Shown here one piece after another: positions 4,400-56,414 of a DNA stretch of 64,000 bases. Below the pieces are notes generated by a model. It was not told the origin of the DNA, searched no databases, and saw only the letters and a program-made list of their open reading frames with translations. This DNA comes from Escherichia coli (GTDB lineage: Bacteria; Pseudomonadota; Gammaproteobacteria; Enterobacterales; Enterobacteriaceae). The position numbers and the translations under genes are program-made. The stretch is taken from NCBI RefSeq assembly GCF_045037415.1, contig NZ_CP173438.1; one strand, written 5' to 3'. Position 1 is the stretch's first letter, and each line of letters begins with the position of its first letter.

Positions 4400-5215
4400 A
4401 TGAGCGTAAAAGTTATCGTCACAGACATGGACGGTACTTTTCTTAACGACGCCAAAACGTACAACCAACCACGTTTTATGGCGCAATATCAGGAACTGAA
4501 AAAGCGCGGCATTGAGTTCGTTGTCGCCAGCGGTAATCAGTATTACCAGCTTATTTCGTTCTTTCCTGAGCTAAAGGATGAGATCTCTTTTGTCGCGGAA
4601 AACGGCGCACTGGTTTACGAACATGGCAAGCAGTTGTTCCACGGCGAACTGACCCGACATGAATCGCGGATTGTTATTGGCGAGTTGCTAAAAGATAAGC
4701 AACTCAATTTTGTCGCCTGCGGTCTGCAAAGTGCATATGTCAGCGAAAATGCCCCCGAAGCATTCGTCGCACTGATGGCAAAACACTACCATCGCCTGAA
4801 ACCTGTAAAAGATTATCAGGAGATTGACGACGTACTGTTCAAGTTTTCGCTCAACCTGCCGGATGAACAAATCCCGTTAGTGATCGACAAACTGCACATA
4901 ACGCTGGATGGCATTATGAAACCCGTCACCAGTGGTTTTGGCTTTATCGACTTGATTATTCCCGGTCTACATAAAGCAAACGGTATTTCGCGGTTACTGA
5001 AACGCTGGGATCTGTCACCGCAAAATGTGGTAGCGATTGGCGACAGCGGTAACGATGCGGAGATGCTGAAAATGGCGCGTTATTCCTTTGCGATGAGCAA
5101 TGCTGCGGAAAACATTAAACAAATCGCCCGTTACGCTACCGATGATAATAATCATGAAGGCGCGCTGAATGTGATTCAGGCGGTGCTGGAAAATAAACCG
5201 CCGTTTAATCTTTGA
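4400..5215 (+). CDS. ybiV: HAD-family sugar phosphatase
   Basis: 271 aa; N-terminal DxDGT motif ([11 protein letters not shown]); Cof-type HAD. Confidence 0.9.
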
Positions 5216-5257
5216 TTATCACCAATTCAGTTTATTGAGAAAGTGCATGTCATTATA

Positions 5258-5405
5258 CCGGATACGGCGTGACCGCCTTATTTGGCATACAAAATCATGA
5301 AAATTCAATATATTGCGATACACTACCAGGCCTGATAAGCGTAGCGCACCAGGCAATCTTGCGTTTGTCATCAGTTTCAGTAGCCCTGACCATATCAGGG
5401 CTACT
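5258..5405. repeat. REP/BIME-type composite extragenic palindrome (copy A)
   Basis: REP-like palindromes (gccggatacggcg...cgccttat; aggcctgataagcgtagcgcaccaggca) around a shared core caatatattgc...ttgtcatcagt; homologous to 30051-30194. Confidence 0.7.
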
Positions 5406-5414
5406 GATAATAAC

Positions 5415-7007
5415 TTACTCGATCCCTTTACTACGCAGGTAATCTTCGTAATTACCGCTAAAGTCGATCACGCGTTCCGGGGTGATTTCCAGAATACGGG
5501 TCGCCAGGGAGCTTACAAACTCACGGTCGTGAGAAACAAAGATCAGCGTGCCCTGATACAGTTCCAGCGCCATGTTCAGCGACTCAATGGATTCCATATC
5601 CAGGTGGTTGGTCGGTTCGTCCATGATCAGAATGTTCGGCTTCTGCATCATTAACTTACCAAACAGCATCCGCCCTTTTTCCCCACCGGAAAGCACTTTA
5701 GCTGGCTTTTTGATGTCGTCCTGGCTGAACAGCAAACGACCGAGAATACTGCGCACCGCCTGCTCGTCATCGCCTTCCTGCTTCCACTGACTCATCCATT
5801 CGAACACGGTCAGATCATTTTCAAACTCATATTCGTGGTCCTGAGCGTAGTAACCAATGCGCGCGTTTTCAGACCATTTTACGGTGCCGCTGTCCGGTTG
5901 CAGATCGCCCACCAGCGTTTTCAGCAGCGTTGATTTACCGACGCCGTTGGTACCCAGTACCGCCAGTTTTTCACCCACTTCCAGCAGCAGGTTGAGATTT
6001 TTAAACAGTGGACCGTTATCAAACCCTTTAGTCAGACCTTCCACTTCTAGCGCGTTACGGAACAGTTTCTTATCCTGTTCAAAACGGATGAACGGGTTCT
6101 GACGGCTGGAAGCTTTCACCTCTTCCAGTTTGATTTTATCAATCTGGCGCGCGCGCGAAGTTGCCTGGCGAGATTTCGAGGCGTTGGCGCTAAAGCGGCT
6201 AACGAAAGATTGCAACTCAGCAATCTGCGCTTTCTTCTTCGCGTTATCAGCCAGCAGACGTTCACGCGCCTGAGTCGCCGCCGTCATGTACTCATCGTAG
6301 TTGCCCGGATAAACGCGCAGCTCGCCGTAATCCAGATCCGCCATGTGGGTACAAACCATGTTAAGGAAGTGACGGTCGTGCGAGATGATGATCATGGTGC
6401 TGTCACGCTCGTTCAGCACCTGTTCCAGCCAGCGAATGGTGTCGATATCGAGGTTGTTGGTCGGTTCGTCGAGCAGGAGAATGTCGGGATCAGCAAACAG
6501 CGCCTGAGCCAGCAGCACACGCAGCTTCCAGCCAGGAGCAACTTCACTCATCGGGCCGTAGTGCTGTTCCACTGGAATTCCCACGCCAAGCAACAGTTCA
6601 CCAGCGCGAGCTTCCGCAGAGTAACCGTCCATTTCGCCGTATTTCACTTCCAGATCGGCCACTTTATAGCCGTCTTCTTCACTCATTTCCGGCAAAGCAT
6701 AGATGCGGTCACGCTCCTGCTTCACTTCCCACAACTCTTTATGCCCCATGATCACCGTATCCAGCACAGTGAACTCTTCAAAGGCAAACTGATCCTGACG
6801 CAGCTTACCAATGCGTTCGTTGGGATCGAGGGAAACGTTACCCAACGTCGGCTCTAAGTCGCCGCCGAGGATCTTCATAAAGGTGGATTTACCACTACCG
6901 TTCGCGCCAATCAGGCCGTAACGGTTGCCGCCGCCGAATTTGACGGAAATGTTTTCAAACAACGGCTTACTGCCGAACTGCATGGTGACGTTACTGGAAA
7001 CTAACAC
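5415..7007 (-). CDS. ybiT: ABC-F family ATPase (tandem ABC domains, no permease)
   Basis: 530 aa; two Walker A motifs GANGSGKST and GTNGVGKST. Confidence 0.92.
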
Positions 7008-24900: not shown

Positions 24901-25161
24901 ATGAAAACTATCAATACTGTTGTTGCTGCTATGGCTCTTTCAACTCTGTCATTTGGCGTGTTCGCGGCGGAACCGGTAACGGCATCCCAGGCACAGAACA
25001 TGAATAAAATCGGCGTGGTTTCTGCCGATGGCGCATCCACCCTCGATGCCCTGGAAGCGAAACTGGCTGAGAAAGCCGCGGCGGCCGGTGCCAGTGGATA
25101 CAGCATCACTTCTGCCACCAACAACAATAAATTAAGCGGTACTGCGGTAATTTATAAGTAA
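24901..25161 (+). CDS. ybiJ: DUF1471/YdgH-family periplasmic protein
   Basis: 86 aa; signal peptide; C-terminal GTAVIYK; paralogous to mcbA. Confidence 0.88.
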   Translation: MKTINTVVAAMALSTLSFGVFAAEPVTASQAQNMNKIGVVSADGASTLDALEAKLAEKAAAAGASGYSITSATNNNKLSGTAVIYK

Positions 25162-25271
25162 TTCGTAAGCTGGATCAGGCGTTTACGCTACGTTCAGCAC
25201 AAGTATTTCCCTGTCTGTTTGCCGACAGACGCATATGCTCTAACCCTCATGATCCTATGTTACCCTTGTTT

Positions 25272-29698: not shown

Positions 29699-29770
29699 TT
29701 GTGGCATTTTTCGGTTTTCAGGGGTAATGGTTTTTCTGTTTCTGGAAAGCGGCTCGCAATAACCAGCAGG

Positions 29771-29968
29771 ATGATGCGTAAAGCGCTTCGCGCTAAATTC
29801 GAACAACATGCAGAACTGCGTACACTCTTGCTGGCAACCGCGTCCGCAAAACTGGTTGAGCATACGCAAAATGATGCTTACTGGGGAGATGGCGGTAATG
29901 GTCAGGGCAAGAATCGCCTGGGGTACCTTTTAATGGCGTTGCGCGGACAATTGGCTGCGGAGAAGTAA
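29771..29968 (+). pseudogene. ybiA: C-terminal remnant of N-glycosidase YbiA (DUF1768)
   Basis: only the last ~65 codons (MRKALRAKFEQHAELR...WGDGG...NRLGYLL...) show YbiA/DUF1768 similarity; the upstream part of ORF 29663-29968 reads through the dinG promoter and LexA box, leaving no room for the ~95-aa N-terminal domain. Confidence 0.5.
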
Positions 29969-30050
29969 CGCATCGGGTGGCTTGTGGGCGTTAAAACAGA
30001 GAAATCTTTTTGCCGCGCTCGCAAATGGCTGACAAGTGCTTGTTGTGAAA

Positions 30051-30194
30051 TGCCGGATGCGGCGCGAGCGCCTTATCCGGCCTACAAAAACATGCACATT
30101 CAATATATTGCAGAGTTCACGTAGGCCTGATAAGCGTAGCGTATCAGGCAGTTTTGTGTTTGTCATCAGTCTCATGCCGGGCATAGCCCGGCAT
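30051..30194. repeat. REP/BIME-type composite extragenic palindrome (copy B)
   Basis: tgccggatgcggcgcgagcgccttatccggcctac ... aggcctgataagcgtagcgtatcaggca ... tgccgggcatagcccggca; same core as copy A. Confidence 0.75.
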
Positions 30195-30200
30195 AAAAGA

Positions 30201-31562
30201 TTACTGCGCAGCGGCAGGTTTACGCGGACGGCGGCGACGTTGTTGTTCGCCTGCCGGTTTGGCATCGCCGAGACGACGAGACGGTTTTTCTGCGGGCTTC
30301 GCGTTACCAGACTTCGCACCACTTTCCGCACGGCGTGGTTGCTGTTGACCGCGACCACCGCCCTGTCCACGACCGCCGCCACGTTGCTGGCGACCGTTTT
30401 GGATCGGTTCGGCTTTGATTGACGGGTCCGGCTCATAGCCCAGAATCGCAATGCGCGGGATCTCTTTTTTCAGCAGTTTTTCGATATCACGCAGCAGTTT
30501 GTGTTCATCAACACACACCAGCGACAATGCTTCGCCAGTTGCCGCCGCACGGCCAGTACGCCCGATACGGTGAACATAATCTTCCGGTACGTTTGGTAAC
30601 TCATAGTTGACGACGTGCGGCAACTCTTCGATATCCAGACCACGCGCAGCGATGTCAGTTGCCACCAGTACACGAATATCGCCCGATTTAAAATCGGCCA
30701 GCGCACGAGTACGCGCACCTTGCGATTTATTACCGTGGATCGCCGCACTACGGATGCCATCTTTATTAAGCTGTTCAGCCAGATGGTTAGCGCCATGTTT
30801 GGTACGGGTAAACACCAGCACCTGCTGCCAGTTCCCTTTCCCAATCATATGCGACAGCAATTCGCGTTTGCGTTTCTTATCGACAAAGTGAACGTGCTGG
30901 GTCACCTGATCAGACGCAGTATTGCGGCGTGCCACTTCGATTTCCAGCGGGTTGTGCAACAGTTTTTCCGCCAGGGCTTTAATATCGTCAGAGAAGGTCG
31001 CGGAGAACAACAGGTTCTGGCGCTTCGCTGGCAGTTTTGTTAACACGCGACGGATATCGTGGATAAAGCCCATGTCGAGCATGCGGTCAGCTTCATCAAG
31101 GACGAGGATTTCAACCTGATCCAGCTTCACTGCATTTTGATGTTCCAGGTCCAGCAGACGTCCCGGCGTTGCCACCAGCACATCAACGCCGCCGCGCAGC
31201 TTCATCATCTGCGGGTTAATGCTGACACCGCCAAACACCACCAGCGAACGAATGTTCAGGTATTTGCTGTAATCACGGACGTTTTCGCCAATCTGCGCCG
31301 CCAGTTCACGGGTCGGGGTAAGAATGAGCGCACGCACCGGACGACGCCCTTTGGCGTGCGGCTGGCGAGTGATCAGGTGTTGCAACAGCGGCAGCGTAAA
31401 GCCCGCTGTTTTACCTGTACCGGTCTGGGCGCTGGCCATCAGGTCGCGGCCTTCCAGCACCGCAGGGATCGCCTGCTGCTGAATAGGGGTGGGTTCACGG
31501 TAACCCTGCTCGGCAACGGCGCGCAGGATATCAGGGCTTAAACCCAAAGAATCGAAAGACAT
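30201..31562 (-). CDS. rhlE: ATP-dependent DEAD-box RNA helicase
   Basis: 453 aa; Q motif, Walker [13 protein letters not shown] box ([10 protein letters not shown]), SAT; Arg/Gly-rich C-terminal tail. Confidence 0.95.
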
Positions 31563-42551: not shown

Positions 42552-42687
42552 GACTTTCTCCTGAAGATATAAGGAATATCTTAAGGATACTGCAAAATGA
42601 TGAGGCTGTGCATCGACGCAGCGTAAACGGATGTACTGAGCGGTGAAATTGCCGGACGCAGCGGTGCCTTATCCGGCTAACAATAAA

Positions 42688-56283: not shown

Positions 56284-56298
56284 GAGCTGTTAACTATG

Positions 56299-56414
<116 letters not shown>

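Follow-up and report, generated by a model that had tools for sequence, protein, structure and literature searches.

The two look-alike stretches in this 64,000-nucleotide piece of Escherichia coli DNA (the whole stretch analysed, hereafter the window) are almost certainly members of the BIME-1 family (synonyms RIP and RIB), short non-coding repeats of Escherichia and its close relatives. Both copies are laid out in the same way, with a left end motif, a Y-type REP hairpin, an L linker that contains an IHF-type site (aTTCAAtataTTG), a Z1-type REP hairpin in inverted orientation and a right end motif; each spacer holds a single unit, and a tandem array is absent from both loci. BIME-1, a name from the nomenclature of Gilson, Bachellier and Hofnung, consists of Y and Z1 palindromic units around a conserved L linker, often with an IHF site, in about 140 bp (PMC3333891; PMC1187871). 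It occurs in single copy and its presence or absence varies among isolates (PMC3333891; PMC2817692; PMC1187871). Binding of IHF to the family linker goes back to Boccard and Prentki (1993), upon whose demonstration the elements were named RIB (reiterative ihf BIME), and to Oppenheim (1993), who named them RIP (repetitive IHF-binding palindromic element), both as cited in PMC3333891 and PMC2817692. A pair of BIME-1 elements is ordinary, and as it stands the finding re-identifies an already known, textbook repeat of E. coli and changes nothing. The identity does, however, explain three features of these spacers together: their strong folding, their IHF-type sites and their coincidence with strain-to-strain differences at both loci.

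Copy A spans 5228-5378 on the plus strand, 151 bp including its end motifs. The left end motif (5228-5255) is a degenerate CA-GTTTATTGAGAAAGTGCATGTCATTA, where the family consensus from 109 loci is CA-GATTGCTGACAAAGTGCGCTTTGTTCA; the match to the family profile starts at 5223. The Y-type REP, or palindromic unit (5256-5290), has 81% identity to that of copy B and folds as a hairpin. It is decayed, with two G.U pairs on the plus strand and the 3' tetranucleotide ATAC (5287-5290) instead of CTAC. The 35-nt L linker (5291-5325) carries the IHF-type core ATTCAATATATTG at 5303-5315 and leads into the inverted short Z (Z1-type) REP (5326-5355), which has three mismatches to the consensus and whose 5' GTAG is mutated to CCAG (5326-5329). 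The right end motif, ATCTTGCGTTTGTCATCAGTT-TC, occupies 5356-5378.

Copy B spans 30022-30173 on the same strand, 152 bp with its end motifs, beginning with a left end motif (30022-30050) of sequence CA-AATGGCTGACAAGTGCTTGTTGTGAAA. Its Y-type REP (30051-30085) forms a hairpin with a partial match to the Rfam family naRNA4, and its CTAC is intact at 30082-30085. The L linker (30086-30120) is again 35 nt long and has the same core at 30098-30110. The inverted Z1-type REP (30121-30150) differs from the consensus at one position and retains its 5' GTAG (30121-30124); the right end motif, GTTTTGTGTTTGTCATCAGTC-TC, lies at 30151-30173. In both copies an A-tract stands before the core, which shares 12 of the 13 positions of the IHF consensus WATCAANNNNTTR, and the right end motif finishes CAGT(C/T)-TC. 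Both also combine one Y-type and one Z1-type unit in opposite orientation; the Z1 assignment rests on the accompanying L linker, following the definition in PMC3333891 and PMC1187871.

Aligned over about 180 nt, the two copies agree in 84% of columns, and ungapped comparison yields one block of 62 nt with 84% identity and another of 52 nt with 88%. This is far above chance: the window has exactly two occurrences of the core motif TACAAAANCATGNANATTCAATATATTGC and exactly two of the second REP, against an expectation of 0.00 for each from shuffled sequence (100 shuffles for the core motif). A search of the window with a 109-member family profile (nhmmer) returned copy B at 30017-30181 (158 bits, E 3e-48) and copy A at 5223-5385 (129 bits, E 3e-39), and found no further full-length copy in the 64 kb. 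Both loci are 100% identical to strain SK1144, and K-12 holds copies at both orthologous spacers. The original prediction, a homologous pair of composite REP elements each some 145 bp long and with the same order of parts, is therefore borne out. It located both elements correctly but began them about 29 nt too far to the right, having missed the left end motif; similarly, the sequence ttgtcatcagt that it singled out is conserved and proves to be the family right end motif, whose counterpart on the left it overlooked. A third REP cluster in the window, at 56299-56408, has an 18-nt linker and no L motif, and is touched by the profile at 56296-56336; two decayed solitary REPs are also matched by the profile.

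The dispersed family that the prediction expected exists: all E. coli genomes searched contain further members, as do related genera. As a query we used the 43-nt linker without REP sequence, since the 161-nt whole element draws generic REP matches. Its matches number 27 per E. coli genome at the median, and at least 40 in 1471 records. A strict linker-plus-Z1 pattern, applied to one genome per species, finds at least 120 loci; among the matches listed, E. albertii has 26 such sites, Escherichia sp. MOD1-EC7003 21, E. whittamii 20 and Pseudocitrobacter faecalis 16. Removal of near-identical right flanks left 109 loci for alignment, some orthologues still among them, and these yield a consensus of 153 nt. 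From left to right this reads as the left end motif TCAGATTGCTGACAAAGTGCGCTTTGTTCA, the Y REP TGCCGGATGCGGCGTGAACGCCTTATCCGGCCTAC, the linker AAAATCATGCAAATTCAATATATTGCAGAAACCAT, the inverted Z1 REP GTAGGCCTGATAAGCGTAGCGCATCAGGCA and the right end motif ATTTTGCGTTTGTCATCAGTCTCA. Conservation of the end motifs across the 109 loci is 60-80%, and directly outside them it drops to background. The two ends of the consensus, TCAGATTGCTGACAAA and, as its reverse complement, TGAGACTGATGACAAA, form an imperfect inverted repeat of 16 nt in which 13 positions match.

When Y and Z REP pairs were collected without a requirement for the linker, TCAANNNNTTR was present in 123 of 127, and the linker was always 34-35 nt long. 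These 127 pairs come from loci first fetched by the linker pattern, and the 31 pairs that do not match that search pattern are their less biased part. Where the cores of these 31 depart from the commonest one, they do so mostly at the four N positions (TCAATAGATTG, TCAATACATTG, TCAATGCATTG). Such a concentration of variation is the pattern expected if IHF binding were under selection.

Comparison with the described BIME and RIP families, which the prediction had also called for, places both copies within the definition of BIME-1. They share with it the Y and Z1 units in opposite orientation, the L linker with an IHF consensus, the single unit of about 140-150 bp, the extragenic location at 3' ends and the polymorphism in presence and absence among strains. 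Nothing essential differs, copy A being decayed and without GTAG and CTAC. BIME-2 and the atypical BIMEs are like BIME-1 in the type of REP hairpin and the type of spacer that they occupy; BIME-2 differs in pairing Y with a longer Z2, in its short S, s, l or r linkers, in its tandem arrays and strong gyrase binding, and in having no IHF linker. Tandem arrays with an L linker occur in Escherichia sp. MOD1-EC7003, and are probably atypical BIMEs.

The genomic setting of the two copies is as predicted, between convergent 3' ends. Copy A is flanked by ybiV (sugar phosphatase; 4400-5215, plus strand) and ybiT (ABC-F ATPase; 5415-7007, minus strand), and copy B by a remnant of ybiA (a NADAR family pseudogene with its N-terminus deleted; 29771-29968, plus strand) and rhlE (RNA helicase; 30201-31562, minus strand); all four have their 3' ends toward the element. 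By crude ORF calls, neighbours across the family present their 3' end to the element in 68 cases against 24 on the left and in 65 against 18 on the right, and convergent pairs are the commonest class of neighbours in the family sample. Around 60% of E. coli REPs lie between convergent genes, and a REP is present in around 30% of convergent spacers (preprint 10.64898/2026.03.23.713779). That both copies are found in spacers of this kind is thus to be expected.

The further suggestion that both copies adjoin differences in gene content holds well for copy A and loosely for copy B. At locus A, the K-12 ybiU segment of about 1.5 kb is replaced by 46 bp (5209-5254). The junction is placed by BLAST at the left edge of the Y REP (5255), and would coincide with the start of copy A should its degenerate left end motif be real. 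The element and hairpin here are about 77% identical to K-12, as computed from BLAST figures, and ybiT and ybiV are 97-99% identical. At locus B, a 287-bp deletion in ybiA (29767-29778, with about 6 nt of junction microhomology) lies about 245 bp from the copy. Both loci are polymorphic among strains. At locus A, strain E148 is without BIME-1, and in strain 2016C-3878 an IS621 insertion interrupts the element, between positions 93 and 103 of the consensus. Locus B carries a toxin-antitoxin pair in place of ybiA in AR_0372, and espX2 in O157:H7. This polymorphism fits the reported enrichment of BIME-1 and other BIMEs in variable segments, the strain-specific 'loops' (PMC1187871).

By analogy with characterised members of the family, the elements may act on both DNA and RNA. 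At the level of DNA, IHF would bind the L linker and bend it sharply between the two REPs, which may themselves be weak sites for gyrase and Pol I. At the level of RNA, the element would be transcribed within the 3' UTRs of the flanking genes, where the REP and flank hairpins may block 3'-to-5' exonucleases and, depending on context, favour termination. Transcripts of rhlE and ybiT would meet a flank hairpin 6-9 nt past the stop codon and then the Z1 and Y hairpins, and those of ybiV would enter the element from the opposite side; little transcription is expected from the ybiA side, because the remnant has lost its 5' end. A role in termination at the window spacers is uncertain, because neither spacer contains a canonical intrinsic terminator (a GC-rich hairpin followed by a T-run) on either strand.

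These potential effects bear on the question of whether the composite and its hairpin are mainly a bidirectional terminator and mRNA stabiliser, selected by the host for convergent gene pairs, rather than having arisen from mobile DNA. On both strands the two spacers fold much more strongly than shuffled sequence (z -4.0 to -5.2), and at locus A the hairpin is retained in the K-12 allele through four compensated pair changes. A REP in a convergent spacer correlates with higher expression of the gene on each side, and REPs are able to stabilise transcripts as well as to terminate them (preprint 10.64898/2026.03.23.713779). Set against this are the lack of a hairpin followed by a T-run on either strand, the variation in presence of the element among strains at these and other loci, and the marks of insertion, namely the inverted-repeat ends and, elsewhere, the flanking duplications. 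We regard host selection as a rather unlikely main explanation; it concerns why the element is kept and is compatible with the BIME-1 identity.

Much less probable is that the elements are small-RNA genes, the linker corresponding to Rfam ES036 (CssrF) and the REP to naRNA4 (CssrE). The ES036 model (RF02751) scores the linker of copy B at 35.2 bits and that of copy A at 21.8, the Y REP has a partial naRNA4 match, and in Shigella a Northern blot showed CssrF as an RNA of about 290 nt, located between dacB and yhbZ (PMC3071730). These scores are below the Rfam gathering thresholds (37.6 for ES036 and 59.5 for naRNA4), and a promoter-like site is absent from either spacer; we reject this as the primary explanation. 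The 43-nt ES036 model covers the BIME-1 linker and the first bases of the adjoining REP, and is therefore likely to match other family members too. Such RNAs are most simply read as products of 3'-UTR processing that contain a BIME-1.

Each copy is followed on its right by a strong hairpin, which the original prediction had taken for a terminal part of the element itself. The hairpin beside copy A (5379-5405; AGTAGCCCTGA-CCATA-TCAGGGCTACT) has a stem of 11-13 bp, extendable to 5377-5407; it starts 2 nt past CAGTT and lies 9 nt from the ybiT stop codon. That beside copy B (30174-30194; ATGCCGGGC-ATA-GCCCGGCAT) has a 9-bp stem and lies 6 nt from the rhlE stop codon. Both are joined to the element through a TC dinucleotide, such that with H as the hairpin the right-hand junction reads CAGTT-TC-H in copy A and CAGTC-TC-H in copy B. 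This regular placement, 2 nt past the right end motif in both copies, is what an integral and homologous part of the repeat would give, and a hairpin of at least 7 bp is found within 12 nt of the right end at 44 of 107 family loci. The two hairpins of the window are, however, unrelated in sequence, as are those of other loci, and conservation in the family is at background right after ...CAGTCTC(A). Furthermore, AR_0372 has the rhlE hairpin but lacks BIME-1 at this place, so that the hairpin belongs to the flank of the gene; empty sites elsewhere carry the hairpin once. An integral hairpin is thus highly improbable and its homology between the copies is refuted, but the association of hairpins with the element is real as a consequence of insertion. 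Least credible of all is that the pair is private to this region, with one spacer derived from the other through segmental duplication or gene conversion: just 24.8 kb separates the copies and they share an orientation, but their similarity stops at the element ends with flanks and hairpins that differ, dozens more members are present per genome and others in further genera, and both loci are occupied in K-12 and locus B also in E. albertii, so that the family census and the unshared flanks lead us to reject it.

A hairpin of at least 7 bp starts within 12 nt of the left end, too, at 38 of 107 family loci. Hairpins resembling terminators have their T-run directed away from the element in 37 cases on the right and 21 on the left, and toward it in three cases on each side. 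Since these terminators face outward, the element lies between stop codons and terminators, in transcribed 3' regions, where terminators exist.

Longer flanks of family members reveal that the sequence to the left of the element often repeats that to its right. At 30 of 56 well-delimited loci, an estimated 47 distinct ones once evident orthologues are merged, the local alignment of flank to flank exceeds the 99th percentile of mismatched left/right pairs; the direct repeat is the better in 23 of these and the inverted repeat in seven. The structure H-CA-[GATTG...CAGTC]-TC-H is present at 28 of the 56 loci (about 25 distinct), and in most of the 28 H comprises an entire hairpin. Repeat length ranges from 12 to 32 nt, mostly 19-26 nt; below 16 nt a repeat does not fold by itself. 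Exactly 2 nt separate H from the element on the left side at 15 loci, and on the right side at 18.

Comparison of empty and occupied sites was made at four loci, and in all four the empty site carries H once. At yhaH-yhaJ a perfect 22-nt repeat, AAGCACCTTGTAAAAGGTGCTT, stands on both sides of the element and is single at the empty site. The yvcK-uvrB spacer gives a further empty and occupied pair, in which the right copy of the hairpin has since been lost in MG1655; uvrA-yjbR and ysgA-metE are empty in K-12 derivatives and occupied in E. albertii. Taken together, these data indicate that insertion of BIME-1 seems to duplicate the whole target hairpin. A target duplication of 3 nt (TCA) was also considered and rejected, as triplet agreement was observed in 25 cases, against 25.7 expected if the two sides were independent, and never when the triplet was non-consensus.

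The copies in the window do not themselves have a flanking direct duplication; each has one hairpin, with a weak remnant of a second at copy B. Copy A is without a left hairpin copy, its left side having been remodelled along with ybiU. The left flank of copy B (30004-30021) consists of AATCTTTT followed by TGCCGCGC-TCG. The former is complementary to AAAAGATT at 30195-30202, past the right hairpin, and the latter matches the left arm of the copy B hairpin at seven of eight positions. For the inverted alignment of the flanks, the score is 11.0 at the orthologous locus of E. albertii and 10.5 at that of Escherichia sp. MOD1-EC7003, against a 99th percentile of 9.0 in controls. With low confidence, we suggest that this flank may be a decayed second copy of the left arm of the hairpin. 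For the window loci we infer insertion at a hairpin from the family pattern and from this weak remnant: BIME-1 would be a non-autonomous mobile element that entered a pre-existing hairpin just downstream of ybiT or rhlE, and only the hairpin copy on the ybiT or rhlE side would have survived.

We tentatively propose, as a possibility that we hold at rather less than even, that BIME-1 spreads by a previously undescribed, structure-directed insertion that duplicates a whole GC-rich hairpin on both sides of the element. The element (5'-CA GATTG...CAGTC TC-3') would enter at a GC-rich hairpin that usually serves both genes of a convergent pair as terminator, and the duplication of 16-32 nt would have its length set by the hairpin rather than by a fixed stagger. 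This could be achieved by one nick per strand, at each foot of an extruded hairpin or cruciform, followed by joining of the element and gap repair. If this is true, the terminal hairpins in the window are the surviving halves of duplications, and the model would explain why BIME-1 lies at 3' ends and inside both 3' UTRs of convergent pairs, as well as its precise loss.

This mechanism would not agree with the duplication-free, single-strand route of the IS200/IS605 type that is usually assumed for REP elements. Transposition of that type, the relatives of which include the RAYT/TnpA(REP) proteins, Y1 transposases that mobilise REPINs, makes no target duplication and involves no terminal inverted repeats, whereas BIME-1 has imperfect inverted ends of 16 nt and a duplicated flank of 16-32 nt at about half of its loci. 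Likenesses are also found in bacterial MITEs, such as the Correia elements of Neisseria and ERIC, which share with BIME-1 a length of 100-200 bp, a location in 3' UTRs with co-transcription, flanking direct repeats and terminal inverted repeats, the last evident in the BIME-1 consensus (13/16); Correia elements also have an internal IHF site. The target duplications of MITEs are short and of fixed length (for example TA), unlike those of BIME-1, which comprise a whole hairpin and vary in length. Full-text searches and the main later papers on BIME and TnpA(REP) gave no earlier description of flank hairpin duplication, and this by-product of the analysis may be new. It could matter more than the identification of the elements, since the H-CA...TC-H junction and the clean empty sites provide a concrete signature of the insertion step and identify terminator hairpins as its target.

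The two copies differ in their likely capacity for further movement. A GTAG 5' of the REP hairpin, or CTAC on the inverted unit, is essential for binding and cleavage by TnpA(REP) (PMC3333891; PMC3479197). Judged by these tetranucleotides, copy B, which has both, could still be a substrate of TnpA(REP), and copy A, which has lost both, is probably immobile.

At around half of the well-delimited BIME-1 loci the same hairpin is present on both sides of the element, in the order H-CA-[element]-TC-H, where H is a locus-specific flank hairpin that lies outside the BIME-1 repeat unit. The duplicated hairpin is mostly 16-32 nt in length and is usually the terminator between convergent genes. The loci with this flank duplication, assessed on the flanks of the BIME-1 of each, are L019, L023, L035, L041-L043, L048, L050, L054, L059, L066, L073, L084, L089, L094, L116 and L120 of the fetched comparison set, and a single copy of the hairpin is found at four orthologous empty sites (L129, L130, L133 and L134). 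Judged from these sequences, the hairpin pair looks like a target duplication that would be defined by structure; we found no description of BIME-1 flank-hairpin duplication in the literature open to reading.

At the first of the two BIME-1 loci of the window, in the ybiV/ybiT spacer, 46 bp (window 5209-5254) stand in place of the K-12 ybiU gene and its flanks (about 1.5 kb; L002 3217-4720), and by BLAST the junction of this replacement coincides with the left boundary of copy A's Y REP. Copy A and its hairpin share only about 77% identity with K-12, compared to 97-99% for ybiT and ybiV, and the entire spacer therefore looks like a divergent allele. In the hairpin downstream of ybiT (window 5379-5405), reverse-complement alignment with K-12 shows four altered stem pairs, all of which are compensated on the opposite arm (A-T/C-G, A-T/C-G, G-C/A-T and T-A/C-G); as read from this pattern of paired substitutions, the predicted structure is retained while the sequence is altered.

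At the second locus, between the ybiA remnant and rhlE, a 287-bp deletion (window 29767-29778) has removed the start and the first ~94 codons of ybiA, with around 6 nt of microhomology (ATGCG) at the junction; in SK1144, an E. coli strain identical to the window over both loci, the annotation lists what is left of the gene as a pseudogene. In the E. albertii orthologue of copy B (L009, ~6480-6500) the rhlE hairpin has stems identical to those of E. coli and an inverted loop, TAT where E. coli has ATA.

The rhlE-dinG region and the region downstream of ybiT are hot spots of gene-content variation. In O157:H7 (L125) espX2 adjoins rhlE, AR_0372 (L126) carries a RelE/ParE toxin pair where ybiA would be, and in E148 (L123) a TIM-barrel gene adjoins ybiT; BIME-1 is absent from the site in all three of these strains. 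REPs are a known target of IS621, and in E. coli 2016C-3878 this IS110-like element lies inside the orthologous BIME-1 of the ybiU-ybiT spacer (L124 1125-1216 and 2505-2551), with its insertion point between positions 93 and 103 of the BIME-1 consensus, near the GTAG of the Z1 REP.

A third REP cluster in the window (56299-56408) has a good Y REP followed by an 18-nt linker and an inverted REP variant (GTCGGATAAG...CATCCGAC), together with a partial REP. Both the L linker and the IHF core are missing, and the cluster is therefore not a BIME-1; it is BIME-2-like or atypical. Two decayed solitary REP-like sequences, at 25158-25222 on the minus strand (E 3e-5) and 42634-42687 on the plus strand (E 1e-4), give weak partial matches to the family profile, and both lie outside every ORF of at least 90 aa.

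The match of the 43-nt Rfam model ES036 (CssrF sRNA) covers the L linker of BIME-1 together with the initial bases of the REP next to it (window 30086-30128 and 5291-5333), and thus it is likely that other BIME-1 copies are also matched by this model.

In Escherichia sp. MOD1-EC7003, Y-L-Z units occur in tandem, with up to six per array at a spacing of ~107 to 230 bp (L102 1054-1629, L098 2698-3233, L112 7802-8491 and L103 355-679). The IHF cores in these arrays are variants (TCAATAGATTG, TCAATACATTG), and the arrays probably represent 'atypical BIMEs' with an L linker. Exact BIME-1 matches were also seen on short contigs of 261 bp to 6.2 kb (L028, L065, L091 and L092) from assemblies labelled Bacteroides, Desulfosporosinus, Collinsella and Methylobacterium, where they most likely represent Escherichia contamination.
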